Source: an uncultured archaeon (GTDB taxonomy: Archaea; Asgardarchaeota; Lokiarchaeia; Sigyniarchaeales; SOKP01). Taken from it: a stretch of 64,000 nucleotides of DNA. The DNA lies in assembly GCA_964508365.1 (NCBI GenBank), contig CAZDTP010000014.1:1-64000 (forward strand), read 5' to 3'. The position numbers were made by a program, and so were the translations under genes. The notes under the pieces are model-generated. The model searched no databases and was not told the DNA's origin. It was given only the letters and a program-made list of their open reading frames with translations. Shown in pieces: positions 3,439 to 25,145 of the stretch; the stretch's first letter is position 1, and each line of letters opens with the position of its first letter.

Positions 3439-3627
3439 CGATTTCTTATTATTTGATTTTTATTGTAAAAAAAGTGTTAAAAAATAGAAATGATTCTTTT
3501 CGATATAAAGTTTTAAGTTTTAAATTTCTCGTGAGAACCATGTAACAAAAGAATTCCAGAAGTAGTTTAGGTTATTAATTGTAATAATAAAAAACAAAAA
3601 AAAAAAGAAATTAGATTATAAAAAATC

Positions 3628-5721: not shown

Positions 5722-6477
5722 ATGTCTTTCAGATCGGGGTTAAAAGTGTATCGGAAAAACAAGAGAGTTCCCTTAGTTTCGAGCGGCGATTCAACGCTGG
5801 ACGAGCTATTGGGAGAGGGTGGTTTCCAAAAAGACTTGGTTTATCTTCTTTATGGAGACAAAAAAAAAACTTCGAACATTTTATTAACCACTTCTGTTAT
5901 TGCTCAGAAATCTTTTGCTAATGGCGGTCTTGGAGAGGAAATTAAGGTTGCGTATATTGACGCAAATAATCGCTTTAATCCATATAATGTAAGTAAATTT
6001 GCTGTTTCCCAAAATTTATCACCTCGAAAAGTGTTAGAAAACATCCTTATTGCTCGTGCGTTTACTTGGGATCAAATGGTAGAACTTCTAGAGAATAGAC
6101 TCTCCAAACTTGAAGACATAAAAGTTGTTCTAATCTCTGGCATCACTACGCTATTTCAAGGCTACGAAAAACAGACTTTTGAAGATTTACTAAGAGCTAT
6201 AAGTGGGATTAAAGCAATTCTGTACAAAACAAAACCTTTAATCCTCTTAACTGCTCCAATGAACGAATATTCTCTTTACAGGCCCAATGGAGGAAAAATT
6301 CTTTCCCACTTCGGAAGCGTATTAATAATGATAAACGAAGACGAGCGATACACCGAATATGTTCTTGTTCAACACCCTTACTTGCCAGAAAATCGCCTTC
6401 TAAAATGGAAGCCGCGCCTTCCTAAAAGAAATTTGGCAAATACTACGAAAAACATGACTTTAGATTGCTGGGTTTAG
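5722..6477 (+). CDS. RadA/RecA-fold protein with degenerate ATPase motifs (PolB2-associated, ImuA-like)
   Basis: GDSTLDELLGEGG, AYID and 'LENILIARAFTWDQ' match the RadA core. Walker A reads YGDKKKTS; the Walker B strand VVLISG lacks the Asp. Confidence 0.8.
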   Translation: MSFRSGLKVYRKNKRVPLVSSGDSTLDELLGEGGFQKDLVYLLYGDKKKTSNILLTTSVIAQKSFANGGLGEEIKVAYIDANNRFNPYNVSKFAVSQNLSPRKVLENILIARAFTWDQMVELLENRLSKLEDIKVVLISGITTLFQGYEKQTFEDLLRAISGIKAILYKTKPLILLTAPMNEYSLYRPNGGKILSHFGSVLIMINEDERYTEYVLVQHPYLPENRLLKWKPRLPKRNLANTTKNMTLDCWV

Positions 6478-6540
6478 CTTTAAGAAATGTTTAAATATTT
6501 ATAACATGAATCGAAATAAGAATAAAAGACATTTGAAAGT

Positions 6541-6951
6541 TTAATCTTTCTTTTTATAGAAGTTAGGATCCTTTTCTTCGAGGGTTAAAGGATCTCCACC
6601 ATATTGAACTTTCTTACCTCTATAGTAAAGCTCTGATTTCTCCTCACAAATCTCGTTCCATTTGTTAAGACCTAACTTCTCAATCATTAATAAGTTATAA
6701 ACCTTTGAGTTGTGTGGTGTAAAAATCTCGAAACTAACAATGGGCTGCAATTTCTCGCATGGGAAGTCTTTACATTCGTAACAGAACTCATAACCTTTAT
6801 TTGTGATGCATTGAAAGGTTTTACATACTGGAAATTTCGATATCTGGCCCTTAAGCGTTCGGCAACCCTTGCAATTAAAGGATTGAACTCCGGGACACCT
6901 TTTGCAGTAAATTCCACAAGGAGCGTGCCAGTTTTTTAATTCTTCATTCAC
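6541..6951 (-). CDS. DUF3795-like Cys-rich protein
   Basis: APCGIYCKRCP...CKGCR...CKTFQC...FCYECKDFPCEKL cysteine pattern. Confidence 0.75.
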   Translation of the reverse strand: MNEELKNWHAPCGIYCKRCPGVQSFNCKGCRTLKGQISKFPVCKTFQCITNKGYEFCYECKDFPCEKLQPIVSFEIFTPHNSKVYNLLMIEKLGLNKWNEICEEKSELYYRGKKVQYGGDPLTLEEKDPNFYKKKD

Positions 6952-7117
6952 AAAAAAAAATGTGAGGAATCATTTAAAAACATATTGAGAGCTAAGAAGA
7001 AGAGAACGACTATCTGAGTTATACCAAAAAAATTAGTAAATTTCAAAGGTATTTTTCTTTAAATTTCCTTAAAGACTTACTAGCGAGATACTTGAAATAA
7101 TACCGAACGTGTAAAAT

Positions 7118-7390
7118 ATGGGAAGGACAGTACCTGCTTTTAGACCCGCTTTAGAGCACGAAATAGAAAGTTGGAAAGAGTTCAAAAGAGCACTTAGGGC
7201 AGAGGACCAAACAATTTTTAATAAATTGATGAACTACGCTAGAATCCATGCTGATGCTGGAAGCCTAGGAGCTCGCCCAATGCTCTCCGAAATTCTCTTT
7301 ATTTCGTTTGCAATTGAACAAGAAAGGAAAATTGGGCAATTGGAGAAGAAAATCGAAGAATTAGAGGAATTAATAAAGGGAATAGAATAA
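7118..7390 (+). CDS. Small helical protein associated with PolB2 (arCOG07300-like)
   Basis: MGRTVPAFRPALEHEIESWKEFKRALRAEDQ N-terminus with a coiled-coil tail; ends 2 nt before polB2. Family assignment is from memory of PolB2 operons. Confidence 0.72.
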   Translation: MGRTVPAFRPALEHEIESWKEFKRALRAEDQTIFNKLMNYARIHADAGSLGARPMLSEILFISFAIEQERKIGQLEKKIEELEELIKGIE

Positions 7391-7392
7391 AG

Positions 7393-9855
7393 TTGGATTC
7401 GCAAACGACTTTTAATGGGTGGCTTCTAGATGTATCCACATATAGCGAAGGAGTTATCCTCTGGGTAAAAACCGCAAAAGAACAGAAAGTAATAAGAATA
7501 TATCACCAGTTCAATCCCGAATTTTTCGCTGCTCCTAAAGATGATGTTGGTAATGACCTAAAGAGAATGCAATATATTCTTACTCAAAATCAGAATGTAA
7601 AGAAAGTCCGTATCTGTGAAAAATATGTGAAACTAGAGGACCATGAAAAAACGAAAGTTCTTGGCGTCACTGTTGAAAAACCGTCGGTGTTTAAGAAAAC
7701 TATAAAAGAAATCAATAAAATAGGATTATTTACACTGTTTAATACGGATCTCCCAATTACTCAGATGTACTTCTATGTCAACGACCTTTTCCCTATGTCT
7801 TTTTGCTGCTTTAAGATTAAGGTCGAAAATAGCAGCGGGAAGAATGATAGATTTTTACGTCTTGTTTCTATAGATTTACAGGACGATAATGAAGAACTTT
7901 TCTACGATTTACCCCCACTAAGAGCCGTCTGGTTAGATGTAAAAATTAATTACCAAGGAATTAAGCCATATTATAACGATCCTATTTCTTATGCCGAAAT
8001 CAGTATAGTTCAGAATGATGAAGACAATGTTCCTCGGGCAGATGGGTACAAAAAACGGAAAATAGTAATTGACAAGAGAAATGAAGCTGAAATTTTAAGG
8101 ACTATCAGTAAAGAAATAGAACGCCTTAATCCCGATATTATCCTTACGCAAAATGGGGACGAATTCCTCTTCCCTTACTTGGTTGCCCGGGCTTCGGAGA
8201 ATCGAATAACAAGTGACCTCTACTTATCCCGAGATAAGAAACCATTGGCAAAGTGTATCTTCGATCTTTCGGGGGGTTCAGACCACTACATGTCCTATGG
8301 TATCATTAGGCGTCGTTCAAGAACTCAAGTGTACCTAACTGGTAGATTTCACTTAGACACAACCACTTACGCCAGTCTTCACTTTTCTGAAGGCAATATT
8401 CCCGGAGTTATTGAAGTTGCCCGCATATCGAGAATTACACTCCAAAGATTAAGTCGCGTGACCATCGGAGGAGCGCTCCAATCAATACAGTTTTATTACG
8501 CTTACAAGCTTGACCATCTGATTCCTCCATTCAAGAAAAATCCCGAAGGGTTCAGTACTGGAATGGATTTAATAAAAAGCGACCGTGGTGGTCATATCTT
8601 CGAACCAATCATTGGAGTATTTGACCAAGTGGTAGAACTAGATTTTTCCTCGATGTATCCTTCTTTAATGGCCAACTTTAACATCTCATCAGAGACTATA
8701 AATTGTAAGTGCTGCAAAGACGATGGCACTGGTATAAAAGTTCCGGGATTGGACTTTCATATTTGTTCAAAAAGGGAAGGTATTATATCAAAAGCTATAA
8801 GTTTGCCATTAAAAAAGAGATTGAAGTACAAAGAATATGTCCGCAAAACTGGAAATGTTCGCTATAACTTCACAGATATCGCTCTTAAATGGGTGCTTGT
8901 AGTAAGTTTTGGATATTTAGGCTTCAAAAATGCTCGATTTGGAAAGATAGAAGCGCATCAGACAGTTTGTGCTTTTGCTCGCGAGTTTCTCATGCGTTCT
9001 GCTGAGATCGCTGAAGAACACGGATGTAAAATTATACATGGAATTGTCGATTCAATATGGTTGAAAGACACAAAAAATCGGAGTCCTGAAGAATTCGAAC
9101 AAATCTCAATAGAAGTCTCAGAAGAAATCACTAAAAGCGTAGGTATTCCAATGAGCTGGGATGGAAGGTACAATGTAATTGTTTTTCTTCCCTCTCGTGC
9201 AGAACCAGACATCCCAGCGCTGAGTCACTATTGGGGTATTAAGATCGACGGAGAAATAAAAGTACGAGGCGTCGAAGTCCGACGTAGAGATGTACCAAAA
9301 ATCGTTAAAGACGCACAGTATGCGTTTATAGATGTGTTTCAGGGAGTAACTACGACCGAAGAATTCATGAGAAGAATCCCAAAAGCCAAGAGCATGCTCT
9401 ACCGTTACATAGACAAGATAGAGACTGGTAAAGTTTCGCGTGATGAACTTACAATTCGCCAAAGAATTTCTAGAAAACCTTCACAATACAAGGTAAACTC
9501 CTATCAAGCTGTTGCTGCAAGACAATTAGAAAGATCAGGTGTTGTGGTGACTCCTGGTAAAAATGTACGGTATATTATACTGAATGCCGAAGCTGATCCT
9601 GAATTTCCTGAGAAGAAGGTAATTCTATCAGACATCTACGACGATAAAAAGCATCAGTATGATAAGAAAAAATATGCCGAACTACTGAAAAGAGCTTTTG
9701 AAAGCATATTTCCTTTTGAGTTTCCTGAACTAGAAGAAATGGTGAAGTCAGATATCATGAGAAAATCTCATCAAATGGATATGTCTTGCTACATTAAGGA
9801 ATCCGATTTAAAAAGTACTCAGCGTAATCGAAGATACGGCAATGATAAAGACTAG
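7393..9855 (+). CDS. polB2: Family B DNA polymerase, PolB2 group (degenerate exonuclease, variant motif C)
   Basis: Motif A DFSSMYPS, motif B KWVLVVSFGYLG, motif C HGIVDS instead of YGDTDS, exonuclease acidic residues degenerate. TTG start. Confidence 0.88.
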   Translation: MDSQTTFNGWLLDVSTYSEGVILWVKTAKEQKVIRIYHQFNPEFFAAPKDDVGNDLKRMQYILTQNQNVKKVRICEKYVKLEDHEKTKVLGVTVEKPSVFKKTIKEINKIGLFTLFNTDLPITQMYFYVNDLFPMSFCCFKIKVENSSGKNDRFLRLVSIDLQDDNEELFYDLPPLRAVWLDVKINYQGIKPYYNDPISYAEISIVQNDEDNVPRADGYKKRKIVIDKRNEAEILRTISKEIERLNPDIILTQNGDEFLFPYLVARASENRITSDLYLSRDKKPLAKCIFDLSGGSDHYMSYGIIRRRSRTQVYLTGRFHLDTTTYASLHFSEGNIPGVIEVARISRITLQRLSRVTIGGALQSIQFYYAYKLDHLIPPFKKNPEGFSTGMDLIKSDRGGHIFEPIIGVFDQVVELDFSSMYPSLMANFNISSETINCKCCKDDGTGIKVPGLDFHICSKREGIISKAISLPLKKRLKYKEYVRKTGNVRYNFTDIALKWVLVVSFGYLGFKNARFGKIEAHQTVCAFAREFLMRSAEIAEEHGCKIIHGIVDSIWLKDTKNRSPEEFEQISIEVSEEITKSVGIPMSWDGRYNVIVFLPSRAEPDIPALSHYWGIKIDGEIKVRGVEVRRRDVPKIVKDAQYAFIDVFQGVTTTEEFMRRIPKAKSMLYRYIDKIETGKVSRDELTIRQRISRKPSQYKVNSYQAVAARQLERSGVVVTPGKNVRYIILNAEADPEFPEKKVILSDIYDDKKHQYDKKKYAELLKRAFESIFPFEFPELEEMVKSDIMRKSHQMDMSCYIKESDLKSTQRNRRYGNDKD

Positions 9856-9997
9856 AGATTTGAGTAAATCTTCTGGCATTGGTGGAAGTAAATTAAAGGA
9901 AATCTTAAATTTTCTGGTTAGAGAAGGGCTTATTAAAGAATATACTACTAATCAGGGTGTAGGGCGACCTGGAATTAATTATAGTATAGTAGAATAA
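9842..9997 (+). CDS. Uncalled winged helix-turn-helix ORF (51 aa), or frameshifted C-terminal domain of PolB2
   Basis: MIKTRDLSKSSGIGGSKLKEILNFLVREGLIKEYTTNQGVGRPGINYSIVE*. The frame is open from 9812 (KVLSVIEDTA) and overlaps the polB2 stop. Confidence 0.7.
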   Translation: MIKTRDLSKSSGIGGSKLKEILNFLVREGLIKEYTTNQGVGRPGINYSIVE

Positions 9998-10034
9998 AAA
10001 TATAAAAAAAAAAGAAAATAATTTTACGGTAAAA

Positions 10035-10589
10035 TTAGATAATAAAAGGAAACAGAAAGAAGTCTAAAAAGATAGCAACTAAACATATAAATTCCATTAT
10101 AACCCATAAATTTCTTTTTATGCTCCTTAAACCTTTGAGGGATTTCCCTGAATAACTAATTGTATTGTAGATTATAATCATTATCCATGCAACTACCAAA
10201 AAAACGATAGGGAGCAATAACGCGTATAATACTTGTCCGATAAAGTCTAATAAGTACACATAACCCAAAATTGAAAAACCGATTATAACTAAAGTAAAAC
10301 CCATACCAAAAGTATATTCTGCGAAGCTCACGAATCGATTAACTTTTATCTCATCAAAATCCTCTAATTTTAGCTCAAATTGCGCCCTTGAATTTGCAGA
10401 AACAGAATTTACAAACAGAATAAATGCTATCATTAGCAAGAAAGTAACTGTAACAATTCCTCTTGTTGGAGGTACCTGCCATACTAAAGCAAGAATCGTT
10501 AATACTGCTCCAATCATGACAGTGCTAAGAACAATCCAATCCCTTACGTTTAAAATTGTGTTTTGGCTTTTCTCTTCCATTTTACTCAC
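10035..10589 (-). CDS. Hypothetical membrane protein (about 5 TM)
   Basis: 184-aa ORF with several hydrophobic segments; no family recognised. Confidence 0.75.
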   Translation of the reverse strand: MSKMEEKSQNTILNVRDWIVLSTVMIGAVLTILALVWQVPPTRGIVTVTFLLMIAFILFVNSVSANSRAQFELKLEDFDEIKVNRFVSFAEYTFGMGFTLVIIGFSILGYVYLLDFIGQVLYALLLPIVFLVVAWIMIIIYNTISYSGKSLKGLRSIKRNLWVIMEFICLVAIFLDFFLFPFII

Positions 10590-10774
10590 GATAAATATTG
10601 TTTATATTTAATTTATTTTTTGAACTAATTATTATAAAATTTCTCTTTTTCATCAAAATTTAGTAATCAATTGAAGTTTTCGTATTTTTTTTGAATTTGT
10701 TCAGTTAATTGTTCAAAAAAATATTCAATATATTTATAAATGAATATTTCATATTAATGATATGAAGGTGGTTA

Positions 10775-11740
10775 ATGATGGAAATAATGAATGAAATGAA
10801 TAGAAAAAAATTGATTATCGAATCACAAAAATATGGAGCTATAAGCCTACGGCGTCAAAAGTTAAGGGTGCATAAAAATGGAGCAAAATTTCCTATAAGT
10901 AAAGCGTATATTGATGACGAACTCCTAGATCCTGAAATTTCTTATACTCTTATTTTAATACCTGAGATCAAGATTGCGAACCAAACAATTGTTTCCCTAA
11001 CTTTTTTTAATAGAAAAAGAGGACCACTTATCTACTATTATTTTCCTGAGAATTCTTTAAATATGACAGAAAAAGCTATCATAACCGATATAATGATGTC
11101 CGCATCTAATGAAAGATACTTTATTCAACAATCGAGTAATTTATCTTCATTAAATTATTATTTTGAAATTTACTCTGATTGGGCTCGCGGGAAGAAAGAG
11201 ATGTTAATGATTAGTGTTATCCTCAATACGAAAATAACTAAGTCAATTGAAGACGTGGTTCTTTCGATTTGTATCGATTTTCAAACAGAATTGACATCTA
11301 TTAAAGATATCTACAAGGCATTATATGATAAATTTTTAGATTCATTTTCCGATGAAGAACAATCTGATATAGAAAAAATCAGTAGAGATTTACATATGAA
11401 AATAAAAGAATTTTATAAAAAAATAAGAATGTTAAACAGTCAAAAATTTGCAAAGGTTATATTCAAAGGTTCAATGGAAATCGAAAAGAAATTAGACTTA
11501 ACTCAAATAGCTCAAGGAATTCAAGAGGCAGAGTTTAATCCAGAGAGATTTCCAGGATTAGTTATGAAAATTGAGAAACCAAGCGCCACAATTCTTTTAT
11601 TTTCTGATGGTAAATTAATGATAACCAATTTGAAAAATACATCTGAAGTAGATACATTGGTTGATATTTTTATGGAAAAACTTAAGAGTATAGGTATCAT
11701 AATACCTAAACCAGAAATTACATTAGAAAGTACCAAATAA
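10775..11740 (+). CDS. Multidomain protein: AbrB-like N-terminus, longin/uDENN-like domain, single TBP repeat
   Basis: C-terminal KLDLTQIAQGIQEAEFNPERFPGLVMKIEKPSATILLFSDGKLMIT is a TBP repeat. Central FFNRKRGPLIYYYFPE and SDWARGKKEMLMISVI resemble the FLCN/SMCR8 uDENN. Confidence 0.78.
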   Translation: MMEIMNEMNRKKLIIESQKYGAISLRRQKLRVHKNGAKFPISKAYIDDELLDPEISYTLILIPEIKIANQTIVSLTFFNRKRGPLIYYYFPENSLNMTEKAIITDIMMSASNERYFIQQSSNLSSLNYYFEIYSDWARGKKEMLMISVILNTKITKSIEDVVLSICIDFQTELTSIKDIYKALYDKFLDSFSDEEQSDIEKISRDLHMKIKEFYKKIRMLNSQKFAKVIFKGSMEIEKKLDLTQIAQGIQEAEFNPERFPGLVMKIEKPSATILLFSDGKLMITNLKNTSEVDTLVDIFMEKLKSIGIIIPKPEITLESTK

Positions 11741-11902
11741 TTAGCTATTATTAGTTTAAAATTAAATAATTAATCACTTTTTTCTCACCTTTATTTAAAG
11801 TTAAATTATGTTCTCACGCTTTCTAATATCATTTTAAATATGATTTTTTAGTAATTTAACAGTCTCTATAGCTTTATTTTTGTTTAATGTTGAATTAAAA
11901 TT

Positions 11903-12076
11903 ATGTCATCAAAAGTAGTCTCTTATTTCGATTGGTCCTTAGGATTTAGAAGTAATTCTCCTGTTAATTCTCCTAAATTTAAAAGTATGAAAAAATCCAG
12001 CTTGAATTCAATTGGAATATCAGATGATGAATTTAAGAACCATTTAAGTAAATGGAAGAAAAATAATCTTTCTTAA
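11903..12076 (+). CDS. Possible small protein (57 aa, below the track cut-off)
   Basis: MSSKVVSYFDWSLGFRSNSPVNSPKFKSMKKSSLNSIGISDDEFKNHLSKWKKNNLS* fills an otherwise empty intergenic gap. Confidence 0.4.
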   Translation: MSSKVVSYFDWSLGFRSNSPVNSPKFKSMKKSSLNSIGISDDEFKNHLSKWKKNNLS

Positions 12077-12175
12077 ACCTAATAATTCAACTACTTTTCG
12101 GATTTTCTTGTTTTATTTAATATATTTGTTCTTCATCTTAATTCTTAGAGTTCGAATAATAAAAACCAATTAAAA

Positions 12176-15100
12176 CTATATAACAATTTCAGCAAGATAA
12201 AGAACAACTAATAATATAGCCCAAATAACTGTTAGTACTATTAAAATTATAGTAGTATAAAACCTCCATTTTATTGAAATCTTCTGTTTCTTTTCAATTC
12301 TGTAAATATAAATCGCAAGTATTGCTCCTAATATAATTATTGAGGATAATATCAGAATTATTCCAAAAATAATTGAGGTTAGGTACGGTAATATTAAAGC
12401 AAATACGAATATGGTAAAACTTATCCAAAGTGTTATAAAACGTTGCATTCTTTGTTTAAAAGCTTGATCTAAATCATCTGTTTTCCCGGTAGGGAGCAAA
12501 GAGATTAAAATTCCTGAAGTCGCTATACCTAAAAGAGATGCGTGATCCCATCTCAACAGACCCAGAACAATGTTGGAAAAGAGCATCCCTACTATTATAC
12601 CTATAAACAGGCACAAAATTGTTCCTATTAATCTAAAGTGCTTTTTTAAGAAATTGAGAGTGGAATAATAAAAATTAAGAAGGATATTTTTGACTTTAAT
12701 AAGAACAAATCGTAAATTATCAATAATATTGTTTAAGAATTTTTTCAATTCTTCAAACATAAAAATAAACAAATATAACATCATTCCTATTAATAACCAA
12801 GAGAAACTCCATCCAGATGAAGATAAATTAAAAGTAATTAAGCTTAATAGCAAAAACATTAATCCGGAGTATAAAAAGGAAAATAATTTGCTTTGTTTAA
12901 AAGGTTTGAATAGAACTAAATTTATTATCATAAAAATGAATAATGCTATGCTCAAGTTTAAAATTAGATTCGGATTTATAAAAAATTCTAATGTTATAAA
13001 AAGATCTAACGATAGAAGGGTTTCAATACAGATAAAACTTGAAATCCGAAGAAAATTCCTAGCCTTATCACTTACAACCTTAATATAATTGTCGATGAAG
13101 GTCAAAATTAGTAAGATAATAAACGATAATATCGATAAATTAAACGAAATAAAATAATCTGGATTAATATAATATAAAGGCCATGTGATTAAATCGAAGT
13201 AGACGATTAGAATTAGGCACTTTTTAATTTTGGATATATTGGAACTGATATAATCCCATTCTGATATTAACCTAAATAAGTATGCGATTTGTATTATAAA
13301 GAATATTATAGTGATAGGGAAAAGGTGTGGGAAAAACAATGAATTCCAATCAATGTAGAATAAGATCGAGAAACCTATCATAACGATCCATGAAGTGATG
13401 ATAAAAAAATTCGAGGTTTTCTTTAAAAACTTTAAAATAAACTTATCCAACAAACTAATCAAATGTGTTAGAATACTTAAAATCAGGATAGCTATATGGA
13501 ATACTATACCAAATGCAGTCAACGAATTAAAGATGTTGATTATTAGAAAGGCATATAAACCTATCCCTAAGAAATTCTGCCTATTAGTTTTCCATTTTCC
13601 AAATATTTCTAGCTTTTCGGGATTAATTTTACGCCTAATATTGAAATATGAGATGTTAGTGTAAAAGTGCATTAATAAAAATATCAAAAATATATAGAAA
13701 AGTGAAGATATTGAAAAACCATATAAATATAATAAAATCAGAGAAAGAGTCCAGGAGATATTTAAGAAACTTAAACAGTGGACAACATCCATATATCCTG
13801 CTTTTAAACGCTTTATACCATATATTTCCAAAATACTAATTATGAATAGAATAATTTGAGAATAGAGTAGACTCTGGATTAAGCCCGTAAATAACACAAA
13901 GAGTCCGAGAAATAAGACCGAAATCTCTAAGTAAATTGTAAATACTAAAATTGAAAAGAGTTTCCTTGTTTTAGTAACCCATTCCTCGTTTTTTATGATA
14001 TCTTTCGATAGATGTACCGTGTAATTAGTTAATAAAGTTTCAGACAGTATAACTAATGCCATTCTTAAAAAATCGAGGATTGCGAATGTTGTAAAGAGGG
14101 CGAGCCAAAAAATACCAAAAAATATTTGGAACGCTATGAAAGTAGAGAAAAGAATAATTTTCTTATACTTATCTTCGATTGTGCGATTTAAAAAACCATT
14201 TAACAGAAACATTAGAAATGAAAAGACAGCAAGAACGAAGCTCAAGGAAGGAATTCCTAATAATAATGGGTTGTAGGCTATTAACAGGTCATTTAAAAAT
14301 AGAGAAAGGTATATACTAATCACAAGAAAAATAGTATTCAGTAGAATTGATTGAGATTGATTTTTAATTTCTTTTATTTTGCTAGCATCATATTTGGTAA
14401 CTTCTTCGATATAGTAAGAAAGGTAATGTAAAGTATAGAACTGTAAGACCAGAAATATTACTAAAGTTAACACAAATAATGTTGCATCCGTTCCTGTAAT
14501 TTGGATAAAGTATATTAATCCTCCAACCGAAATTACAAGAAATGCTACGATATTAAACAAATAAGCGATCTTTTCTAAAATTCTCTTTAAAACATGGATA
14601 TCTAATAAGGTGGAGAGGAAAAATATAGCAACGGATAATAATATCGCTCCATATAAGCTAATAGTTATTAATTCCTGAATCAATCCAAAACTTAACAAAC
14701 CAAGTTCAAAATGCGATAGTAGGGACATAATAGAATCGAATTTGGTCATACCATAATCCTTTTCAGACTCTTGTTCTTCGATTTTCTTCATAAAAATTAA
14801 TCTTGATATCGAAAAATAAGCAGAATAAATCAAAAGTGAAAGCAAAACAATATAATAGAGTGATTGAAATAATTCAATGAATAATATGAATTGTAGAGTT
14901 AATAGTGTTAATGCTAAAGGTGTAATATACCACAAGATAAAACTATATTCATATAATACCGACCTAAGAAAAAGCAAATTGACAAATATGAATATCGCAC
15001 TCAATAAAAAGATAGATCCTGGCAAGAAAACATAAACCAATGATGAAAGAGTAAGCGATGTTCCAATCGATAAAATAGATAATGGAAATATTTTTTTAAG

Positions 15101-18100
15101 GGGCATTATCATTCGAAATCTGTTAAATACAAGAATTGAGCCGCCAAAAACAGTAATTGCTAAAGATAAAGCGATGATTTCGATATTAGGAATTAATATA
15201 AACGTGTTGTAGGTGAAAAATGAGAAATTTACAACTAGTATCGACGAGATAATGATGTTAAAAAAAGTTCTGTTGAGTTTAAGGATCCTAGAAGAAAACA
15301 GACTGAAAGCGAGTATTATAAAAGAGAGGTTAATTGATATAAAGAAATTTAGAATTATTGAATTTATGATCAAGAAAAGTGTTAGGAAAATGCCAATTAG
15401 AGAAAGAAAATATGAACCTATCAGTATAATGTTCTTCAAATTTTTTAAATTTGGGAAAAATGATAAAATAACGAAAAAGAATCCCAATACGATTAGATTA
15501 ATTGATAAGTTAATTTCTAATGGTAATAATATTACTTGGAATAACATAAAAAGGAAGCTTATGTTTATGAAAATGTAGAATAACCATAAGAGAGTTATGA
15601 TCTTCCACATTTTCATTCTATAAATAACCGGCATAAGAAGAGATACTGCAAAAACAAAAAACACTATATTTGTAATCACGATATTTTCAGAAAAAACATT
15701 TTGACTAAACCAGTATAAGAAGAACAAGCTAAAACTCCAAACTATTATTAGAATTGAAGAGAAATGTCTTTTAATCCATGAGTACCAAAAAGGTAGAGAA
15801 AGCAAAACACAAATTGTAAAACTTATTATAAATGAACCACTAATGTTGATTCCAAAGAGATTTAACGCATTAGTGTTAATATTAATATCGGTAAAACTCT
15901 CGTTAATGATATAAAAATTTACGAAGGGAACAATAATCCATAACCTCCACCCTGTTTTCCATATCACCCAAGAGAATTTCCAGTAGTAAAAACCTATTGA
16001 TAGGTAGAATAGAAGAATGCCAATATTGATGGTTATAATAAGCAAGAAAGGATCCCATACAGGTAAATTAAAAGAGGCATTTAAGAAAAAATACATTAAA
16101 GTTGGAATAGAAATAATGTAGGATGAAAAAGCAATATAAAAAGAACGTCGTCTGAAATTCTCAGGAGCTTTATTATAGGTTCCCACATAAGAAATACTGG
16201 TAACGCTTAAAGTTAGAGTGAATGTCAGTATTGGATTAAAATCTATAAAAATGGGATTATTAAATAGAATATAATAAGACAAGAAACTTATTAGGTTAAA
16301 AACCATAAGCAAAACACAAGGTCGGATGAACCACTTATAAAGATCATTTTTTTGCTTGTAGTAGAAATTACCTGTTAATATTAAAAATAAGAACAGAGAG
16401 AAAGAAATGTTATAAATTAAAGGAATTACGGTATTGTAGAGTAGTAAACTAAAGGTTATAATCGATATTAATATATATAAAGCGAATTTTTCGATTACAT
16501 TAACATTCCGTATGTTTAACACAATAGAAAAGAACAAGACAATCATTAACGAAAAATTGAAATAAAAAAGATAAAAAGGGAAGTCGAATATATCGAATGA
16601 AGGAAGTAACATATAATAATTTAATGTTATAATCAATCTTACTAAAATTAACCAGCTGAGTGAGAAGTAGCTAATAATTCGAAATACAAAATTGCGATTC
16701 CTATTGGAAATAAAGAAGTAGATCATAATAATAAAAAATACATAAGCAAAATATTCGAAAACACTCGGAAAGATAGAAAAGAAAGAAAGCATAAGTAGAG
16801 ATGGACCTAGTAATATTTTTATTAGTTTGAATTCAGACACATTCTCAATTGTATCATTGTATTTAACCAGATAATAATTGAACAACAAATATATACCACA
16901 GAATAAAACAATAAGTCGTAATGGTTGATATATGCTGTAAAATGGAAAAATTTGACTGTAATTCCAATATAATTCACTGAATATAATAATTAAGACAAAG
17001 TAGAAAATATAATAGATGAGTCTTTTATAAAGTGTTTGAGAATCATCAGAGATAAAAAAGTTATTTCTTAAATAATAAATAGTAATAGGACTGATGAAGA
17101 GTACAATTACTAAAGGTAAACCAATCCTTTGTATCAGAGATAATTGAGCAGGAATAATAAGAATATAGAAACACAATAAAATTTTAATTATTACCCATGC
17201 GGATAAATCAAAAGCCCACCTGATTCTTGAAAATTCAATTTTGAATAATTTACGACTGACAGTTGATACTATTAGGTAAGTTAACAAAAATATTCCAACA
17301 TATGTAGTTAAAGTTAATAGTATAGACTCTTGAAGCTGAAATAATGAATAAATATTATGAAATGGAAACAGGAAAATAGTAAGCGAAGCTACCATAAATT
17401 CGATGAAAAAATAAAATATGTTCTTAGTATATTCGTATATTTTGTAGATTCTGTAATAATCAAATTTACTTTGTTCGTTTTCAAATATCCGCTGCTTGAG
17501 ATTTTCAATTGGAATTAAGATAATAAGATTCAAAACAAGAAATACTAATGAGGAACAACTGATATCGATTCCAACATTATGAGTTATGGAGTTTAATACC
17601 GCAAAAAACTTCGCAGAGATAATAAAAGATAAAATCACCCAGGTGATAACCTGGCAAGTTTTAATAGAAACGAAATAGGATTCTTTAAGTTTATATTTAT
17701 CAAAGAGAAATTCTAAAAAAACTAAGAATCCAAAAAATAAAGCAATTGCAGCACTATTGATTATATAATAATCTACAGCTACACCTAATCTATTAAAATC
17801 TAATCCTATTATATAAGGAAGCGAAATTACTAATCCAGATATGACTAAACTGTCTATTATTAACATTCTCTCCATAAATTTAATGAAAACATTCTTATTT
17901 AGGGAATAAAACAGAGGTAATAATAGAGATATGCCTAAGATCAGCAGAGGAATATTATATGCATAAACAGAAGTAGATAGAAACAAAAATAGATAAAAAG
18001 AGATGAGAATACTGGTGAAACACATAGTAACTATATTAAATCCATTCGAAATTTTTTCTGAAAACAAAATTCTCTTCTTTGATAAAAAATTGATAATCAA

Positions 18101-20311
18101 GCAAATAAGAACTATCGATATGTATGCTGAAAAAATTGGTTCAAATTGAAGTTGTTGGTTAAAGATGGCGAACATTATGAAGAAAGCTTCTAGCATTATT
18201 AAATAGCTGATAAACTTTTCAATTACCATAACTTTTTCCCGAGATATAATTTCTATCTTAACTCCCAATTTCAAAATGTAATAACACGCAATAGTTATAT
18301 AGAGAATATTAAGCACGATTAACGAATTTAAAATTGTAAAAAATAAAGTAGTAATTAGATAGAAATTAAATATAAAGACTGACAGAAATATGATGCTGGA
18401 GCAAAAGAAATGATATATTAGGAAGGATTTTCGATTCATAACATTTTTTTTGTGAAGATAATAAATGGGAATGTAAGAGAGCAAGCTAACTAAAATAAGA
18501 GGTACAAAAAATACTAAGAACGAGTCCTTAGTGTAAATTGTACTATAATAACCTACCATAAACAAACCTAGATATAACGTAAATGAGTTTAATATCAACG
18601 CTAGAGCCTGAGGAAAGATTTTGTATTTCTGTGAATCAAGATATATAATTAGACTTATTATCACCAATGAAAAAAATGAAGAAATAAGTAAGTCTAAATT
18701 CAAATAAATCATGAAAAATGATAGAAGCAAAACAAAAACTTCAATAGCAATGGGATAAGATATGATATTCAAAAGAGACCTAGATTTTGATTCTTTGAGC
18801 ATTCTTATTTTCTTTCCATAGTAAATTAGAATCACTAGACAAATGGATATAAACAATAGATTAAATATGGTACCAATAATTAGATGTGCGCTAAAGTAGA
18901 TTACAATTATAAACCAGTTCAAAACGAAAAACAAAACCATGAGCACCCATGAGGAAACATAAGTGTAAATTGCGATGATTTTAGGTTTTAATACCTTTTC
19001 GCCATACAGATAATAAATCGGAGCAAAACCCAAGAAAAAAAATATAATAGGGGCAATTAAATATACATAAAACTCATTTATATTTGCGTCTAAAAAGTAA
19101 AATCCAACGATACCAGTATTAAATATCAGGATAAATAATGTCAATGTTATTTTTACTTTTCTAGGAATAATTACCACATTCGAAGGAACTAGATTAAAAA
19201 CGATACCAATAATGCAACAAGAAAGGAACAAGGCAAGCAAGGCGTCCAAAAGGAATACAAGACTAAAAATCCCATAAAATAATAAGAAAATTTCAATTAA
19301 TAGAGCAAAACTGTCAACGCTAATTATTAAATTGAAGGTGGAATCTTTAACTTTTTTTAGAATCTGTCCAAATCTAAGGTTAATTAAAATAAAAACTGAA
19401 AGAAATACTAGATCTAGAAGCATAACTACAAAATTATTCCAAAAAATTATGAACATTATAAAAAAAATCGAGGACAGCAAAAACCAGCAGGCATAATAGC
19501 TATAATTTAAAGTGATTTCTCGAGAGAATATTCGAATGACATAGTTGAAAAGCACGAATAAAATGAAAACTATTGGAAGTAAAATTGAAGATAACATTAA
19601 TTCTCCTTGAAATACCTCAAGAATTCCCAATGCTACATTTTTAATAGTAACTAAAACAAACCAAGTAGTTTCTAATAGTAAAAAGAGGGCAGTAATACAA
19701 TAATTAAAAAGTTTCCAAGGTTTTTCGTATAATCGAATACGAACATAAGAAAAATAAAACGACAATAATGTTATTGCTAAGATAATAATAGTGTGAATTA
19801 ATATACTGGAGATTAAAAGTACATTTGGATCTACTGTGAACTGTAAATATACAAATTCGATTATTGGTAAGAATGAGTATAAAATTATTGTAAAACTAGC
19901 AACAACGAGCAGATTTTGAATAATTAATACCGTTTTTTCTTGAAAATATTTAAGCCTCTCAAAAAATTGAAATATTACATATAATGACAGTGTGAGTATA
20001 AGAAATTGAATATTTAAAAGCCCTATTCCCCAAAAAAATGGTAAGATCCAAAAGATAACAACGATTAACATCCCTAAGCTACTAAAAAGATATATATACC
20101 TGCCGTAAAGAATGGTAGTAAAGTTCGCTTTTTCTTCGTAATAGGTGAGAATAAAAATTATCGGTAATGTAATAGTACTGATTAAAGGATTATTATTCAA
20201 TACTGAAATTGAGAGGACTAGAAGAATTAAACTGACTGAGACAATAAAATTTAACTTTATAAAAGTGTTAATCTCACCAGTATCAACCTCTTCAGCATTG
20301 TTAGAACTCAT
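12176..20311 (-). CDS. Giant polytopic membrane repeat protein (2711 aa)
   Basis: 8.1-kb open frame in AT-rich DNA. Hydrophobic segments alternate with short basic loops along the whole length; ~184-aa internal repeats. Confidence 0.9.
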   Translation of the reverse strand: MSSNNAEEVDTGEINTFIKLNFIVSVSLILLVLSISVLNNNPLISTITLPIIFILTYYEEKANFTTILYGRYIYLFSSLGMLIVVIFWILPFFWGIGLLNIQFLILTLSLYVIFQFFERLKYFQEKTVLIIQNLLVVASFTIILYSFLPIIEFVYLQFTVDPNVLLISSILIHTIIILAITLLSFYFSYVRIRLYEKPWKLFNYCITALFLLLETTWFVLVTIKNVALGILEVFQGELMLSSILLPIVFILFVLFNYVIRIFSREITLNYSYYACWFLLSSIFFIMFIIFWNNFVVMLLDLVFLSVFILINLRFGQILKKVKDSTFNLIISVDSFALLIEIFLLFYGIFSLVFLLDALLALFLSCCIIGIVFNLVPSNVVIIPRKVKITLTLFILIFNTGIVGFYFLDANINEFYVYLIAPIIFFFLGFAPIYYLYGEKVLKPKIIAIYTYVSSWVLMVLFFVLNWFIIVIYFSAHLIIGTIFNLLFISICLVILIYYGKKIRMLKESKSRSLLNIISYPIAIEVFVLLLSFFMIYLNLDLLISSFFSLVIISLIIYLDSQKYKIFPQALALILNSFTLYLGLFMVGYYSTIYTKDSFLVFFVPLILVSLLSYIPIYYLHKKNVMNRKSFLIYHFFCSSIIFLSVFIFNFYLITTLFFTILNSLIVLNILYITIACYYILKLGVKIEIISREKVMVIEKFISYLIMLEAFFIMFAIFNQQLQFEPIFSAYISIVLICLIINFLSKKRILFSEKISNGFNIVTMCFTSILISFYLFLFLSTSVYAYNIPLLILGISLLLPLFYSLNKNVFIKFMERMLIIDSLVISGLVISLPYIIGLDFNRLGVAVDYYIINSAAIALFFGFLVFLEFLFDKYKLKESYFVSIKTCQVITWVILSFIISAKFFAVLNSITHNVGIDISCSSLVFLVLNLIILIPIENLKQRIFENEQSKFDYYRIYKIYEYTKNIFYFFIEFMVASLTIFLFPFHNIYSLFQLQESILLTLTTYVGIFLLTYLIVSTVSRKLFKIEFSRIRWAFDLSAWVIIKILLCFYILIIPAQLSLIQRIGLPLVIVLFISPITIYYLRNNFFISDDSQTLYKRLIYYIFYFVLIIIFSELYWNYSQIFPFYSIYQPLRLIVLFCGIYLLFNYYLVKYNDTIENVSEFKLIKILLGPSLLMLSFFSIFPSVFEYFAYVFFIIMIYFFISNRNRNFVFRIISYFSLSWLILVRLIITLNYYMLLPSFDIFDFPFYLFYFNFSLMIVLFFSIVLNIRNVNVIEKFALYILISIITFSLLLYNTVIPLIYNISFSLFLFLILTGNFYYKQKNDLYKWFIRPCVLLMVFNLISFLSYYILFNNPIFIDFNPILTFTLTLSVTSISYVGTYNKAPENFRRRSFYIAFSSYIISIPTLMYFFLNASFNLPVWDPFLLIITINIGILLFYLSIGFYYWKFSWVIWKTGWRLWIIVPFVNFYIINESFTDININTNALNLFGINISGSFIISFTICVLLSLPFWYSWIKRHFSSILIIVWSFSLFFLYWFSQNVFSENIVITNIVFFVFAVSLLMPVIYRMKMWKIITLLWLFYIFINISFLFMLFQVILLPLEINLSINLIVLGFFFVILSFFPNLKNLKNIILIGSYFLSLIGIFLTLFLIINSIILNFFISINLSFIILAFSLFSSRILKLNRTFFNIIISSILVVNFSFFTYNTFILIPNIEIIALSLAITVFGGSILVFNRFRMIMPLKKIFPLSILSIGTSLTLSSLVYVFLPGSIFLLSAIFIFVNLLFLRSVLYEYSFILWYITPLALTLLTLQFILFIELFQSLYYIVLLSLLIYSAYFSISRLIFMKKIEEQESEKDYGMTKFDSIMSLLSHFELGLLSFGLIQELITISLYGAILLSVAIFFLSTLLDIHVLKRILEKIAYLFNIVAFLVISVGGLIYFIQITGTDATLFVLTLVIFLVLQFYTLHYLSYYIEEVTKYDASKIKEIKNQSQSILLNTIFLVISIYLSLFLNDLLIAYNPLLLGIPSLSFVLAVFSFLMFLLNGFLNRTIEDKYKKIILFSTFIAFQIFFGIFWLALFTTFAILDFLRMALVILSETLLTNYTVHLSKDIIKNEEWVTKTRKLFSILVFTIYLEISVLFLGLFVLFTGLIQSLLYSQIILFIISILEIYGIKRLKAGYMDVVHCLSFLNISWTLSLILLYLYGFSISSLFYIFLIFLLMHFYTNISYFNIRRKINPEKLEIFGKWKTNRQNFLGIGLYAFLIINIFNSLTAFGIVFHIAILILSILTHLISLLDKFILKFLKKTSNFFIITSWIVMIGFSILFYIDWNSLFFPHLFPITIIFFIIQIAYLFRLISEWDYISSNISKIKKCLILIVYFDLITWPLYYINPDYFISFNLSILSFIILLILTFIDNYIKVVSDKARNFLRISSFICIETLLSLDLFITLEFFINPNLILNLSIALFIFMIINLVLFKPFKQSKLFSFLYSGLMFLLLSLITFNLSSSGWSFSWLLIGMMLYLFIFMFEELKKFLNNIIDNLRFVLIKVKNILLNFYYSTLNFLKKHFRLIGTILCLFIGIIVGMLFSNIVLGLLRWDHASLLGIATSGILISLLPTGKTDDLDQAFKQRMQRFITLWISFTIFVFALILPYLTSIIFGIILILSSIIILGAILAIYIYRIEKKQKISIKWRFYTTIILIVLTVIWAILLVVLYLAEIVI

Positions 20312-21239
20312 TGATTTTAATCCTCCTTAAGAATTTGCTGTAGAATGAACTTATATATAATCTGATTTTAAAGTAAAATGCTAAGAAAACGAGGGATAAT
20401 AACGAGATGTTTATAATTTCTATGAAGTCGTGATGAATACCAACTAATATATAGACGATTACTATAACGAAAGGCATTTGAATTAACAGTACAAATACTA
20501 GGCCTAATAAAGAATTTACAAATTTTTTCTTAAAAATTATTAAGTCTTCTAAGAACGGTTTCTTACTGTCAATCGAAATAGCAATATTTTTACAGATTTT
20601 TACACAGGAGAGTCGAGAAATAACATAAAATATGATGTTCCAAATGAGAGGAAATAACCAAGAGACTTTTGTATTAAAAGTATAAGAGAGGAATACTATA
20701 TGAACAATGTAGTTAACAGCTAACATGATATTATAAGGTTGCCTAATAATTTGAGAAGAAGAAATTGCATGATTGAATTTCTCTTCCGTAGGATCAAAAA
20801 AATCAATGGGCTGAAAATAATAATAATAATATACAATATTATACAAGATGCTAAAAGAAATTATAGGTAAAAGCTCAAAGTAGTTATCTCCTGGAGTAAA
20901 TAAAACAAAAATTGGGGTAACGATTAAAGCTAAGATCGTTATTAAAAAGACGATATTAATTCTTGCGGAAAGATTATTTAATTTGTTGGAAAAAAAGGGA
21001 TTTTTCCTGTATTTGTCAAATGCCTTATAAAAGAATAATAAAACAAACATAAAAGTTATAACAGACAACCCAACTGAAACAATAGGGTCTTTACCTATAA
21101 AAAAATAAATGAAAAATCCAACAACTGCTACTAATGACGGAACAATTATTAAATAAAAACTGAACCACCAAAATTTCCAAAGTAATTCGGTTGCCTTTGT
21201 GATCTTCTCATCAGAAGAGCTGATTTTATTAGATTTCAT
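20301..21239 (-). CDS. Hypothetical membrane protein (about 8 TM) overlapping the giant gene's start
   Basis: 312-aa hydrophobic ORF; its 3' end overlaps the start of 12176..20311 by 11 nt. Confidence 0.82.
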   Translation of the reverse strand: MKSNKISSSDEKITKATELLWKFWWFSFYLIIVPSLVAVVGFFIYFFIGKDPIVSVGLSVITFMFVLLFFYKAFDKYRKNPFFSNKLNNLSARINIVFLITILALIVTPIFVLFTPGDNYFELLPIISFSILYNIVYYYYYFQPIDFFDPTEEKFNHAISSSQIIRQPYNIMLAVNYIVHIVFLSYTFNTKVSWLFPLIWNIIFYVISRLSCVKICKNIAISIDSKKPFLEDLIIFKKKFVNSLLGLVFVLLIQMPFVIVIVYILVGIHHDFIEIINISLLSLVFLAFYFKIRLYISSFYSKFLRRIKINEF

Positions 21240-21389: not shown

Positions 21390-22712
21390 TTATTGAAATT
21401 TAGGTAAAAACTCACTTTGCAATTCTTTCATCTCGCTAAAAATTCTTTCAGCTATCTCAAAACTCCCTACATTAGGATCTATGGCTAATGCATTAATTGC
21501 TACTTCTTTAGATTTAGTAAGGATCGCTTCAACGCACAGATCTTGGATACTCGCCTCAATTCGAAGTAGGGCTGCTATATTTTTCGGTAAATTTCCCCAT
21601 TTAATTCCGCGTATACCAGCTTTACTAACTGTTACTGGACACTCAATAATCAAATCTTGTGGTAAATTATCTATGATTCCATTGTTTGGAATGTTGACAG
21701 CGCTCTCATAGGACGGTTGGTTAGTAACCATCGCTTCAATAATAGGAACTGCTCGTTCTCCTGATATTCCCTTTGAGAGCATACCTTTTTTAAGATACTT
21801 TCCCTCTTTAAGTCGCTTATAATTTCTCATAACCTTTCTATAGATATGTTCACCATGCTTTTCAGTTCTATTAATCCAATCTACCATATCTTGTGTTTCA
21901 GTAAATTCCTCACCAAACTGTAAATATTCACCTAGATGATTATCCCCTACATACGGAAAATAACCAAATCTCTTGAAAACTTCAAATGTTAACGAAGAAA
22001 ATTCGAACCTATCTTCATGTTGTTTAAAATACTCTGGAGCTATCTTGTTAAATTTCGGCATTAAATCCATTCCAGTAGAGATTTCCTCAAGCCCCATTAA
22101 AAATCCAAAATGATTTAATCCATAAGGTTTTAGTTTTAAATTCTCTAAATTTTTATTGAGCATTTGAGGTATATGGTAATTGAGAAACCCAATTTGATGG
22201 CATAACCCAATAAATTTAAGATTTGTTGTTGTTCTTTTGATAGCTAAGCATACTCTTGCCATTGGATTAGAAAAATTTATAAAAAAAGCGTTTGGACATA
22301 AATTATCGACATCTTTTACAATATCGATAATTGGAGGTATTATTCTAAAAGCATGCATAGTTCCCCCTGGACCACCACATTCGCCTAATATTTGTTTTGA
22401 GTTGTATTTTCGTGGAATTTCGTAATCTTCTCTCCACAATTTAAAGCGCTCTCCTACTTCAATGGAACTTATTATGAAATCTGCACCTCTTAATGCATCT
22501 CTACGGTTTGTAGTGTGTTCAATAATAAATTTGTCGTTATGGATTTTGTTTTCGGTTATAACTAATTCATAAATTATATTTAAATGTTCTTTATCGATGT
22601 CGTGTAATACTATCGTCGATCCATGCAAAAATTCACTTTGAAAGAGATCTAATAAAGTAGAAGGTCCAAAGGAGGTACTACCTGCCCCTATTAAAACTAT
22701 TTTACTTTTCAT
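21390..22712 (-). CDS. Glycoside hydrolase family 4 (alpha-galactosidase/MelA-like)
   Basis: NAD-binding IGAGSTSFG, GECGGPGG, NFSNP, GLCH, GLNH and IDNLP motifs. Confidence 0.9.
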   Translation of the reverse strand: MKSKIVLIGAGSTSFGPSTLLDLFQSEFLHGSTIVLHDIDKEHLNIIYELVITENKIHNDKFIIEHTTNRRDALRGADFIISSIEVGERFKLWREDYEIPRKYNSKQILGECGGPGGTMHAFRIIPPIIDIVKDVDNLCPNAFFINFSNPMARVCLAIKRTTTNLKFIGLCHQIGFLNYHIPQMLNKNLENLKLKPYGLNHFGFLMGLEEISTGMDLMPKFNKIAPEYFKQHEDRFEFSSLTFEVFKRFGYFPYVGDNHLGEYLQFGEEFTETQDMVDWINRTEKHGEHIYRKVMRNYKRLKEGKYLKKGMLSKGISGERAVPIIEAMVTNQPSYESAVNIPNNGIIDNLPQDLIIECPVTVSKAGIRGIKWGNLPKNIAALLRIEASIQDLCVEAILTKSKEVAINALAIDPNVGSFEIAERIFSEMKELQSEFLPKFQ

Positions 22713-23969: not shown

Positions 23970-25145
23970 CTAATTGAGAGTTCTTTCTATTCTTTCTAAG
24001 GCTTCTTTTAATTTTTCAATTGGTTGGGTTAAAGCGAATCTAACAAAACCTTCTCCATAAGTGCCAAAGCCCGTACCGGGAGTTAAGATTACACCTTCGT
24101 TAATTAACTTTTTAATGAACTCCATGCTATTTGTTTCTCCTTTCGGTATGCGAGTCCAGACATAAAAAGTCGCTTTAGGCTTGTCCGTGTTCCAACCGAT
24201 ATCATTAAGACCCTTTACCAAAACATCGCGCCTTTCCTCATATATTTTTACATTATCTCTTACGATTTTAGGTTTTTCTTCTGATTTATATTCATTTAAA
24301 CCTTTTATCACAGCTTTTTGGATAAAAACTGGGCATCCCGAATCAATGTGAGACTTAACCTTCCTTAATCCACTAATAATATCCTTATCCCCCACTGCCC
24401 ATCCGCACCTAAATCCCGTCATGCAGAACATTTTTGACGAGCTATTAATTTCTATGTGATTCTGATCTATCTGCAAAAGCGTTGGAGCGATATAATCCTC
24501 GTAAGTGAATTCTGAATACGGATTGTCATAAACAATGATGAAATTATAATCCTCTGCGTTATCTGCGGCTTCTTTTAGAAACTCCTTCGTTGCTATTGCG
24601 CCAGTTGGATTATTTGGGTAATTTAAATACATCAATTTAGCTTTTTTTAAGATTTTACTTTCAATAACTTCAAAATCGGGTAAAAAATCATTTTCTCTTT
24701 TTAAAGGAATCGAATATATTTTTCCATCACATAATTTAGTGGCACCATTTTCATATACGGGATAACCGGGATTAGGACATAATACAATATCTCCGGGATT
24801 AACAAACACTCTAGCGATATTAGCTACTCCCTCCTTTCCTCCTATTACGTTAGTTACTTCATCATTAGCATCAAATTTTAAATTAAATCTGACCTCATAC
24901 CACTTCTGTACAGCCTCTCTAAAATCTTGTTCTCCCTTACTTGATGGGTAATTTTGATTTTCGGGGATTTTTACTTGATTAATTAGTTCATTAATAATCA
25001 TATCTGGAGTGGTTAAATCCGGGTCACCTATCCCTAAGGGGATGAAGTCTATTCCTTCCTTTTTCCTTTCATTGATTAGTTGCTCAATTTCTGCGAAAAT
25101 ATATCCTGGTAACTTATTAATCCTATTTGCATATTTTATTCTAAT
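23970..25145 (-). CDS. dapL: Class I/II PLP aminotransferase, LL-diaminopimelate aminotransferase-like (start extended to a probable ATT at 25145)
   Basis: YLNYPNNPTG, YDNPY, SSSKMFCMTGFRCG (PLP lysine), PGTGFG..GEGFVR. The frame stays open 48 codons above the called ATG and encodes the conserved YANRINKLPGYIFAEI..LGIGDPD segment. Confidence 0.85.
   Translation of the reverse strand: MRIKYANRINKLPGYIFAEIEQLINERKKEGIDFIPLGIGDPDLTTPDMIINELINQVKIPENQNYPSSKGEQDFREAVQKWYEVRFNLKFDANDEVTNVIGGKEGVANIARVFVNPGDIVLCPNPGYPVYENGATKLCDGKIYSIPLKRENDFLPDFEVIESKILKKAKLMYLNYPNNPTGAIATKEFLKEAADNAEDYNFIIVYDNPYSEFTYEDYIAPTLLQIDQNHIEINSSSKMFCMTGFRCGWAVGDKDIISGLRKVKSHIDSGCPVFIQKAVIKGLNEYKSEEKPKIVRDNVKIYEERRDVLVKGLNDIGWNTDKPKATFYVWTRIPKGETNSMEFIKKLINEGVILTPGTGFGTYGEGFVRFALTQPIEKLKEALERIERTLN

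Follow-up and report, generated by a model that had tools for sequence, protein, structure and literature searches.

Piezo1 and Piezo2 possess 38 helices per chain, with nine 4-helix units forming each blade and a pore module at the C-terminus that bears an extracellular cap, and they assemble as trimers. In bacteria, Arc3A (PA5114) is a 35-helix protein having no residues indicative of enzymatic activity, which protects against a phospholipase toxin; its helices are densely packed, their number varies among homologues, and it is adjoined by an Arc3B-type partner assigned to Pfam PF13163 (PMC8926400). Prokaryotic giants with numerous predicted transmembrane (TM) helices are also found among the Omnitrophota 'Archaeovorins', which exceed 10,000 amino acids (aa) and devote most of their length to enzymatic and binding domains outside the membrane (bioRxiv 10.1101/2023.11.21.568195). 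The present analysis concerns a gene of 2711 codons, hereafter the giant, located on the minus strand of the first 64,000 nucleotides (nt) of contig CAZDTP010000014.1 (assembly GCA_964508365.1); this whole stretch of DNA is referred to as the window. The giant is a genuine and conserved gene, belonging to an Asgard archaeon of Lokiarchaeia type. It is near certain that it and the gene upstream of it, both translationally coupled, encode one protein with 3,023 residues and approximately 95 helices, composed almost wholly of TM hairpins. Its architecture consists of a fixed Trp/Pro-rich hub between two arms of even-numbered helix modules. An earlier reading of the locus, made without database searches (the sequence-only reading), had described a membrane protein of tandem TM repeats; the variability of these repeats, the unique conserved hub, the detached N-terminus and the distribution within a single order are new beyond it.

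Regarding the reality of the gene, the reading frame picked out by the sequence-only reading is intact, starting with ATG and remaining free of stops for 8.1 kb (2711 codons) in DNA of 26-28% GC. It is a single-copy gene in its own genome (4.07-Mb assembly, 100% complete), and 84 homologues can be aligned over the full length, with full-length relatives down to 23% identity. As calculated from orthologous pieces of congeneric genomes, dN/dS lies at 0.27-0.28 in the 184-aa repeats and falls to 0.13-0.19 in the central region; these values, well below 1, indicate purifying selection on both, being stronger on the centre. The composition of the protein is extreme, as Leu, Ile and Phe account for 46% of its residues (composition count), and around 90 'helices' are also obtained from shuffled copies by a hydropathy rule, both of which would suit a non-functional or mis-called frame arising as a compositional artefact of T-rich DNA. 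This explanation is refuted by the 8.1-kb open frame in 27% GC DNA, the distant full-length homologues, the dN/dS values and the strictly alternating pattern of Lys and Arg presented below, so that its probability is negligible. Elsewhere in the genome, another very long polytopic open reading frame (ORF) encodes 2,310 aa and has no fewer than 6 hydrophobic segments; it is unrelated to the giant as seen by the own-genome search.

The number of helices in the giant, previously estimated by eye as 70-80, proved to be about right: a strict rule of non-overlapping 19-mers counts 75, with the next-richest ORF of the genome reaching 20, and a dynamic-programming hydropathy segmentation gives 82-88, applied to the query or to the family-mean profile. 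The helix count alone proves little, because the latter rule also finds 85-98 'helices' in 100 shuffled copies of the giant, and it was thus dropped as evidence in itself. The segmentation score, meanwhile, is 3799 for the real protein and at most 3259 in shuffles, and the helix segments bear 48 charged residues compared to 107 in shuffles. Moreover, Lys and Arg are found in alternate loops, with 154 in the even-numbered and 5 in the odd-numbered ones when the family-mean profile is used, and 138:17 for the query alone, compared to approximately 56:55 in shuffles, where one side never holds more than 69%. As this register is held across all 87 segments, very few crossings can have been missed or be spurious.

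The lack of a large soluble domain, also noticed from the letters, is in agreement with the loop lengths. The longest non-membrane stretches measure 41, 32 and 29 aa, every one on the Lys/Arg-rich side. The cytoplasmic loops of the giant sum to 690 aa (longest 41 aa), all rich in Lys and Arg, and the outside loops sum to 232 aa (longest 19 aa). In the pair of proteins taken together, the outside loops are short and nearly uncharged, and the cytoplasmic ones short and Lys/Arg-rich. AlphaFold2 models contain about 21 long helices in a 591-aa core, with a predicted local distance difference test (pLDDT) value of 84.5, and 12 long helices in the first two repeats of the N-terminal arm (pLDDT 73.9), the latter model being based on a shallow alignment. 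The helices of the giant are poor in packing residues: glycine and alanine make up 6.0% of them, compared to a median of 13.2% in 216 other polytopic ORFs of the genome (1.9th percentile), which agrees with a large lipid-exposed surface. Inside the 87 helices, only 16 conserved positions are polar or charged, and the buried conserved charges are E214, K1043, E2129 and D2436. The amphipathic helix described near the end of the chain was also found where expected, being the longest cytoplasmic segment, followed by five helices; its hydrophobic moment is 0.61 over aa 2520-2537, and the amphipathic character is kept in the family consensus. A P-x-x-(Y/F/W)2 capping motif throughout the chain was discarded as a candidate, as its 7 matches are equalled by the up to 7 seen in shuffles.

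The upstream gene encodes a 312-aa protein and overlaps the start of the giant by 11 nt, with the GGAGG sequence eight bases before the ATG. This protein matches residues 1 to ~310 of 45 or more fused homologues at 40-55% identity, and the concatenation of the 312-aa and 2711-aa sequences is collinear with residues 1-713 of the fused homologue P0058 (712 residues). The split point falls in a cytoplasmic loop. Most homologues are fused, and both forms are present within one genus. In addition, P0129 is a divergent member of the family (E 1.4e-16; 1,497 aa, encoded on a contig of 6.2 kb) whose residue 5 is aligned with position 40 of the hub; it may represent a further split form that begins at the hub, or its gene call may be truncated.

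The N-terminal arm of the giant carries the three ~184-aa repeats, here named A units, whose starts at aa 309, 493 and 677 had been proposed by the sequence-only reading. The motifs that it gave for them, a Gly near the start, (I/L)E.F and P(I/L)(Y/F)Y, are present in the unit alignment, and the repeats themselves stand far above their nulls. In a segment-wise self-BLAST, the offset of 184 residues gives 66-82 bits over aa ~243-835, compared to 38-44 bits for the best off-diagonal match in 10 shuffles. In a profile-profile comparison, performed with 200-column windows of a 75-sequence family alignment, the unit scores 120-180 (P 99-99.8%), and the column-permuted null has a mean of 11.7 and a maximum of 19.8; scores of 20-35 carry no information, being attained by any pair of helix-loop-helix profiles. 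The repeats are therefore statistically supported, which the earlier reading had set as one of the points on which its description depended. Its second set of repeats, in the C-terminal third, corresponds to two units of ~260 aa (B units), aligned to each other by hhalign with a score of 141 (P 99.5%). Weaker scores of 41-45 link aa 844-1061 with 1882-2080 and also connect the A and B units.

Both units have an even number of helices, six in A and eight in B, so that the topology is preserved on duplication. As seen with hidden Markov models (HMMs) of both units, homologues contain 1-4 A units and 1-5 B units, and their total lengths range from 2,522 to 4,905 aa. The region aa 450-750 is gapped in 43-69% of the distant homologues, and in another genus 3-7 partial unit matches per genome occur with a different period. 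Through tandem duplication, separate lineages have gained and lost A and B modules. The description of the giant as a repeat-built protein holds as far as it consists largely of tandem TM modules, but the 184-aa repeats are its least conserved part, missing in 45-70% of distant homologues, and variable in copy number.

Meanwhile, the highest conservation of the protein is found in the non-repetitive hub, where aa ~1250-1800 are almost gap-free among distant homologues. An alignment of 47 sequences, down to 18% identity, has 14 invariant columns in the hub, each occupied by W, P, F, N or S; D, E, H, K and R do not occur among them. In the AlphaFold2 model, the Trp-rich signature of the hub takes the form of short broken helices, after which comes a small beta-hairpin on the outside (model residues 209-251). 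According to this model, the broken helix with its invariant Pro and Asn would suit the site of a channel or transporter as well as a scaffold.

The distribution across Asgard genomes, which the sequence-only reading had suggested examining, is narrow. A hub query finds the gene in 114 of the 399 genomes of the phylum, every one in the window's own order, with the limit that absence from incomplete genomes proves nothing. By family of the order (f1 to f4), hub matches occur in 100/134, 1/1, 10/13 and 2/4 genomes, respectively, and in 0/245 for the rest of the phylum. The cultured Lokiarchaeia, to which the same reading had pointed, do possess homologues, as confirmed by exact look-up in family f3: DSAG12_00898 of Promethearchaeum syntrophicum MK-D1 (3,940 aa, closed genome), NEF87_003094 (4,905 aa) and NEF87_002906 (3,146 aa) of Lokiarchaeum ossiferum and a 4,296-aa protein of 'Ca. 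Harpocratesius repetitus'. L. ossiferum thus has two giant paralogues, at 4743-19502(+) and 3312-12764(+), and most genomes have one. By BLAST, the giant resembles the homologues from closed f3 genomes only in the hub, with 26-30% identity and E 1e-23 to 1e-29, plus its C-terminus in one case, the 4905-aa protein of L. ossiferum (E 1e-5). A 1892-aa homologue (P0010), 91% identical to the 2711-aa giant, carries the NCBI label 'Candidatus Nanopelagicaceae bacterium'; as the name is actinobacterial and the protein is otherwise restricted to Lokiarchaeia, its contig was probably mis-binned.

Table 1. Features of the giant, its upstream piece and neighbouring genes in the window.
Feature	Residues (aa)	Position (nt)	Strand	Description	Basis
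Large piece of the giant membrane protein	1-2711	12176..20311	-	2711 aa, ATG start, about 87 helices, N-terminus cytoplasmic	
Small piece, detached N-terminus of the giant		20301..21239	-	312 aa, 8 helices, N-in/C-in	
Coupling junction		20301..20326	-	GGAGG 20326-20322; ATG 20311-20309; partner stop TAA 20303-20301	
Partial A-unit copy	~258-308	19388..19540	-		Matches of 64-68 bits at offset 175-179; hhalign 129.5
A repeat 1	309-492	18836..19387	-	6 helices	Self-BLAST, profile-profile, HMM limits
A repeat 2	493-676	18284..18835	-	6 helices	Self-BLAST, profile-profile, HMM limits
A repeat 3	677-860	17732..18283	-	6 helices	Self-BLAST, profile-profile, HMM limits
Conserved non-repetitive hub	~1250-1800	14912..16564	-	About 21 helices	Conservation, AlphaFold2
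Trp-rich hub signature	1444-1469	15905..15982	-	W1451, W1458, P1462, N1465 invariant; G1454 nearly	
B repeat 1	1832-2093	14033..14818	-	8 helices	hhalign, HMM domains
B repeat 2	2094-2353	13253..14032	-	8 helices	hhalign, HMM domains
Longest cytoplasmic segment, amphipathic helix	2520-2560	12632..12754	-	Followed by five helices	
Last five helices and conserved cytoplasmic loop		12179..12631	-	Loop with E2673, S2679, K2681, R2683, F2684	
5-helix membrane protein		10035..10589	-	184 aa; downstream of the giant, link to it unproven	
GH4-family glycosidase		21390-22712	-	Upstream of the giant pair	
Class I/II aminotransferase		23970-25001	-	Upstream of the giant pair	

Searches for relatives outside the family gave no assignment. 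Pfam yields 0 families for the 2711-aa giant at E <= 1 and none for two longer homologues at E <= 0.1, NCBIfam has no match for the giant, and the hub profile finds nothing among PDB sequences at E <= 10. When the hub HMM was run against 1.84 billion representative proteins, the 58 matches obtained were all from this giant family or its fragments. Structure comparison, an approach proposed earlier, was applied to two modelled fragments, and Piezo is not among the rows obtained. The best Foldseek matches against PDB have E 0.39 for the hub and 0.73 for the repeat model, with TM-scores of 0.1-0.28, and they include no compact transporter fold; the rows are mostly weak matches to soluble helical-repeat proteins (TPR/HEAT/designed-repeat). 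VIA-align covered 48,161 chains, with a Z of ~13 as the level of the tool for a meaningful helical-bundle match. Its best row for the hub remains below that level (Z 10.4 over 79 of 591 residues, a three-helix motif) and corresponds to an arrangement of the Mrp/complex I small-subunit type (MrpF, NuoK/ND4L), with no PDB-sequence or Pfam match to accompany it. In the ESM Atlas, recognition is below threshold and the matches are generic, and in the literature no paper was found on the giant family or the locus tags DSAG12_00898, NEF87_003094 and NEF87_002906. As far as these sequence and model searches reach, the giant family matches no described family or solved fold, in line with the earlier statement that no family was recognised.

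The best explanation taken as a whole, comprising identity, architecture and mechanism, is given a probability of roughly 0.35. It proposes a structural or mechanical role for the giant, exerted within the bilayer. The protein would form a long row or plate of hairpins, occupying roughly 100 nm2 of membrane per molecule, in which the arms would contribute by their extent and not by specific chemistry, and the hub would be an assembly site or the seat of whatever specific activity exists. A membrane role scaling with extent is suggested because the protein has no extramembrane mass, its invariant residues are aromatic, Pro or Asn and not charged, its arms vary in even-helix steps, a cut in the chain is tolerated and its helices are poor in Gly and Ala. 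The same features make a common type of enzyme or solute transporter less likely, and the absence of a compact transporter fold from the Foldseek rows also counts in favour of the proposal. In addition, the proteome of MK-D1 showed no S-layer protein (PMC11284389), which provides a plausible setting for a structural role.

Some of the evidence weighs against this proposal. The most conserved element is, in the model, a broken helix whose Pro and Asn are invariant, which is typical of channels and transporters. The predicted buried charges E214, K1043, E2129 and D2436 are typical of the same proteins, and both features would suit a channel-like hub. The low Gly and Ala content is indirect evidence. 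The structural or mechanical role, considered by itself, is thus held tentatively, and part of the total probability is assigned to none of the readings considered here. A more far-reaching form of it, in which the family would be a new membrane-intrinsic skeleton, is speculative and quite unlikely to be right in full: arranged as a ribbon or plate, about 95 to 150 hairpin helices would stiffen, partition or curve the S-layer-less membrane of Lokiarchaeia and aid in the formation of their long protrusions, with the arm length tuned by gain and loss of modules.

The features of the hub also fit a different mechanism, in which the hub, perhaps oligomeric, would be a conduit, and the hairpin arms would sense tension or curvature with a Piezo- or MscS-paddle-like logic without homology. 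Such a channel would account for a fixed hub with a discontinuous helix and invariant W/P/N residues flanked by variable arms, as well as for the long amphipathic helix of in-plane type before the last five helices. Moreover, the top two four-helix rows of VIA-align for the repeats are mechanosensitive channels, matched at their peripheral helices: YnaI (9e62; Z 9.1, 116 aa, root-mean-square deviation 5.0) and Flycatcher1 (7n5d; Z 8.2, 112 aa). However, these Z values are below the meaningful level of about 13. The giant has no Pfam match to the MscS channel domain (MS_channel, pore helix plus beta-domain), and Piezo domains are matched neither by it (E <= 1) nor by the two longer homologues (E <= 0.1). 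It has neither an extracellular cap nor a cytoplasmic vestibule domain, no polar pore-lining pattern was identified and the conserved intramembrane polar residues are sparse. A channel of this kind is a less probable alternative to the structural role.

A third possibility concerns lipids, since the design of the giant agrees with that of Arc3A as described (PMC8926400). The mass of helices would handle lipids or protect the membrane by sequestering, buffering or turning over damaged or unusual lipids, or it could scramble lipids. The small membrane partner adjacent to the giant is in accordance with this idea, and the low Gly and Ala and high aromatic content of the giant agree with extensive protein-lipid contact. 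However, there is no sequence relationship to PF10101 (DUF2339): this profile gives 0 matches in the whole genome at E <= 10, is above its cut-off of 33.6 bits in 0/399 genomes of the phylum and has no weak match on the giant gene, and Pfam finds no domain in the three members of the giant family that were scanned. The assignment of the giant to DUF2339/Arc3A was thus rejected, having no PF10101 match at any threshold tried. Likewise, a DUF2339-containing cluster appears in the ESM Atlas only at rank 21 with a score of 0.84, the level of chance, and no Arc3B-type (PF13163) gene is present among the Pfam-scanned neighbours of the giant. The ether lipids of archaea are not known to be attacked by the phospholipases against which Arc3A defends. 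Considering both sides, a role in lipid handling is rather unlikely. Separately, a 975-aa frame in a genome of the same family (L094, 4661-6241, plus strand) reaches a sub-threshold DUF2339 score of 28.3 bits; this frame is not the giant gene.

Regarding the neighbourhood, an aminotransferase, a GH4-family glycosidase and the giant follow each other on a single strand, and this order recurs in most of the examined loci of two genera in the window's family. It could be taken to suggest that the giant is a transporter or membrane enzyme tied to these two enzymes, e.g., an exporter or flippase of an envelope component derived from a sugar or amino sugar. However, the order is not found at the examined loci of the cultured species, and a synteny limited to one taxonomic family may be an inherited gene order, constituting a weak lead at most. 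The giant also lacks a transporter or glycosyltransferase Pfam domain, and neither a conserved acidic residue in the outside loops nor an invariant charged residue in the hub is present. As for a GT-C glycosyltransferase specifically, Pfam and NCBIfam give no match, there is no invariant acidic residue and the outside loops total only 232 aa. A function tied to the neighbouring enzymes is therefore improbable.

On the other side of the giant, the 184-aa type of membrane gene is a recurrent same-strand neighbour, lying directly 3' of the giant in four other loci of the genus. In the window, a plus-strand TBP-longin gene (10775-11740) sits between the giant and the 184-aa membrane gene. Within the window's family, the downstream side of the giant holds a 181-aa membrane protein in this genus or a LIV-type ABC transporter in another genus, neither of which is present at the loci of the cultured species. 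The 184-aa protein has no Pfam match, and the idea that its gene is a detached C-terminal piece of the giant was dropped, as it bears no similarity to any member of the giant family.

If the helix count holds, few known membrane proteins have as many helices in a single chain as the giant, which has about 2.5 times the helices of Piezo. Having nearly no mass outside the bilayer, it challenges ideas on how such a chain is inserted and on what an all-membrane protein is capable of. As homologues are present in the cultured P. syntrophicum and L. ossiferum, the localisation, expression and structure of the protein are directly testable in these species, the membrane architecture of which bears on eukaryogenesis. 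Furthermore, the natural split form and the natural series of module copy numbers are ready constructs for separating the hub from the arms.

Comparing the giant with the known systems, the resemblances are of design. The superposition of the A-repeat model on the peripheral TM helices of YnaI and Flycatcher1 covers four consecutive helices, with Z values in the range of chance, and the giant differs from both in having neither the MscS beta-domain nor any sequence similarity to them. Unlike the 'Archaeovorins', it has essentially nothing outside the membrane. With Arc3A/DUF2339 it shares a massive polytopic chain of dense helices, with no soluble or obviously catalytic domain, a helix number that varies among homologues and a small partner adjacent, in design only; Arc3A possesses about 35 helices and is bacterial, whereas the giant pair has about 95 and is found in one archaeal order, and the partner of the giant is a detached piece of its own chain, compared to the Arc3B-type lipoprotein that adjoins Arc3A. 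The Piezo analogy drawn by the sequence-only reading stands in design but not in unit size, cap or Pfam matches. Piezo is not among the Foldseek and VIA-align rows for either modelled fragment, and the giant has no extracellular cap (outside loops of at most 19 aa), 2.5 times as many helices and units of six and eight helices in variable copy number, compared to the four-helix units of Piezo. Nonetheless, both are very large repeat-built TM proteins in which a more conserved non-repeat module is joined to arms of helix units, this module being C-terminal in Piezo, where it holds the pore, and central in the giant.

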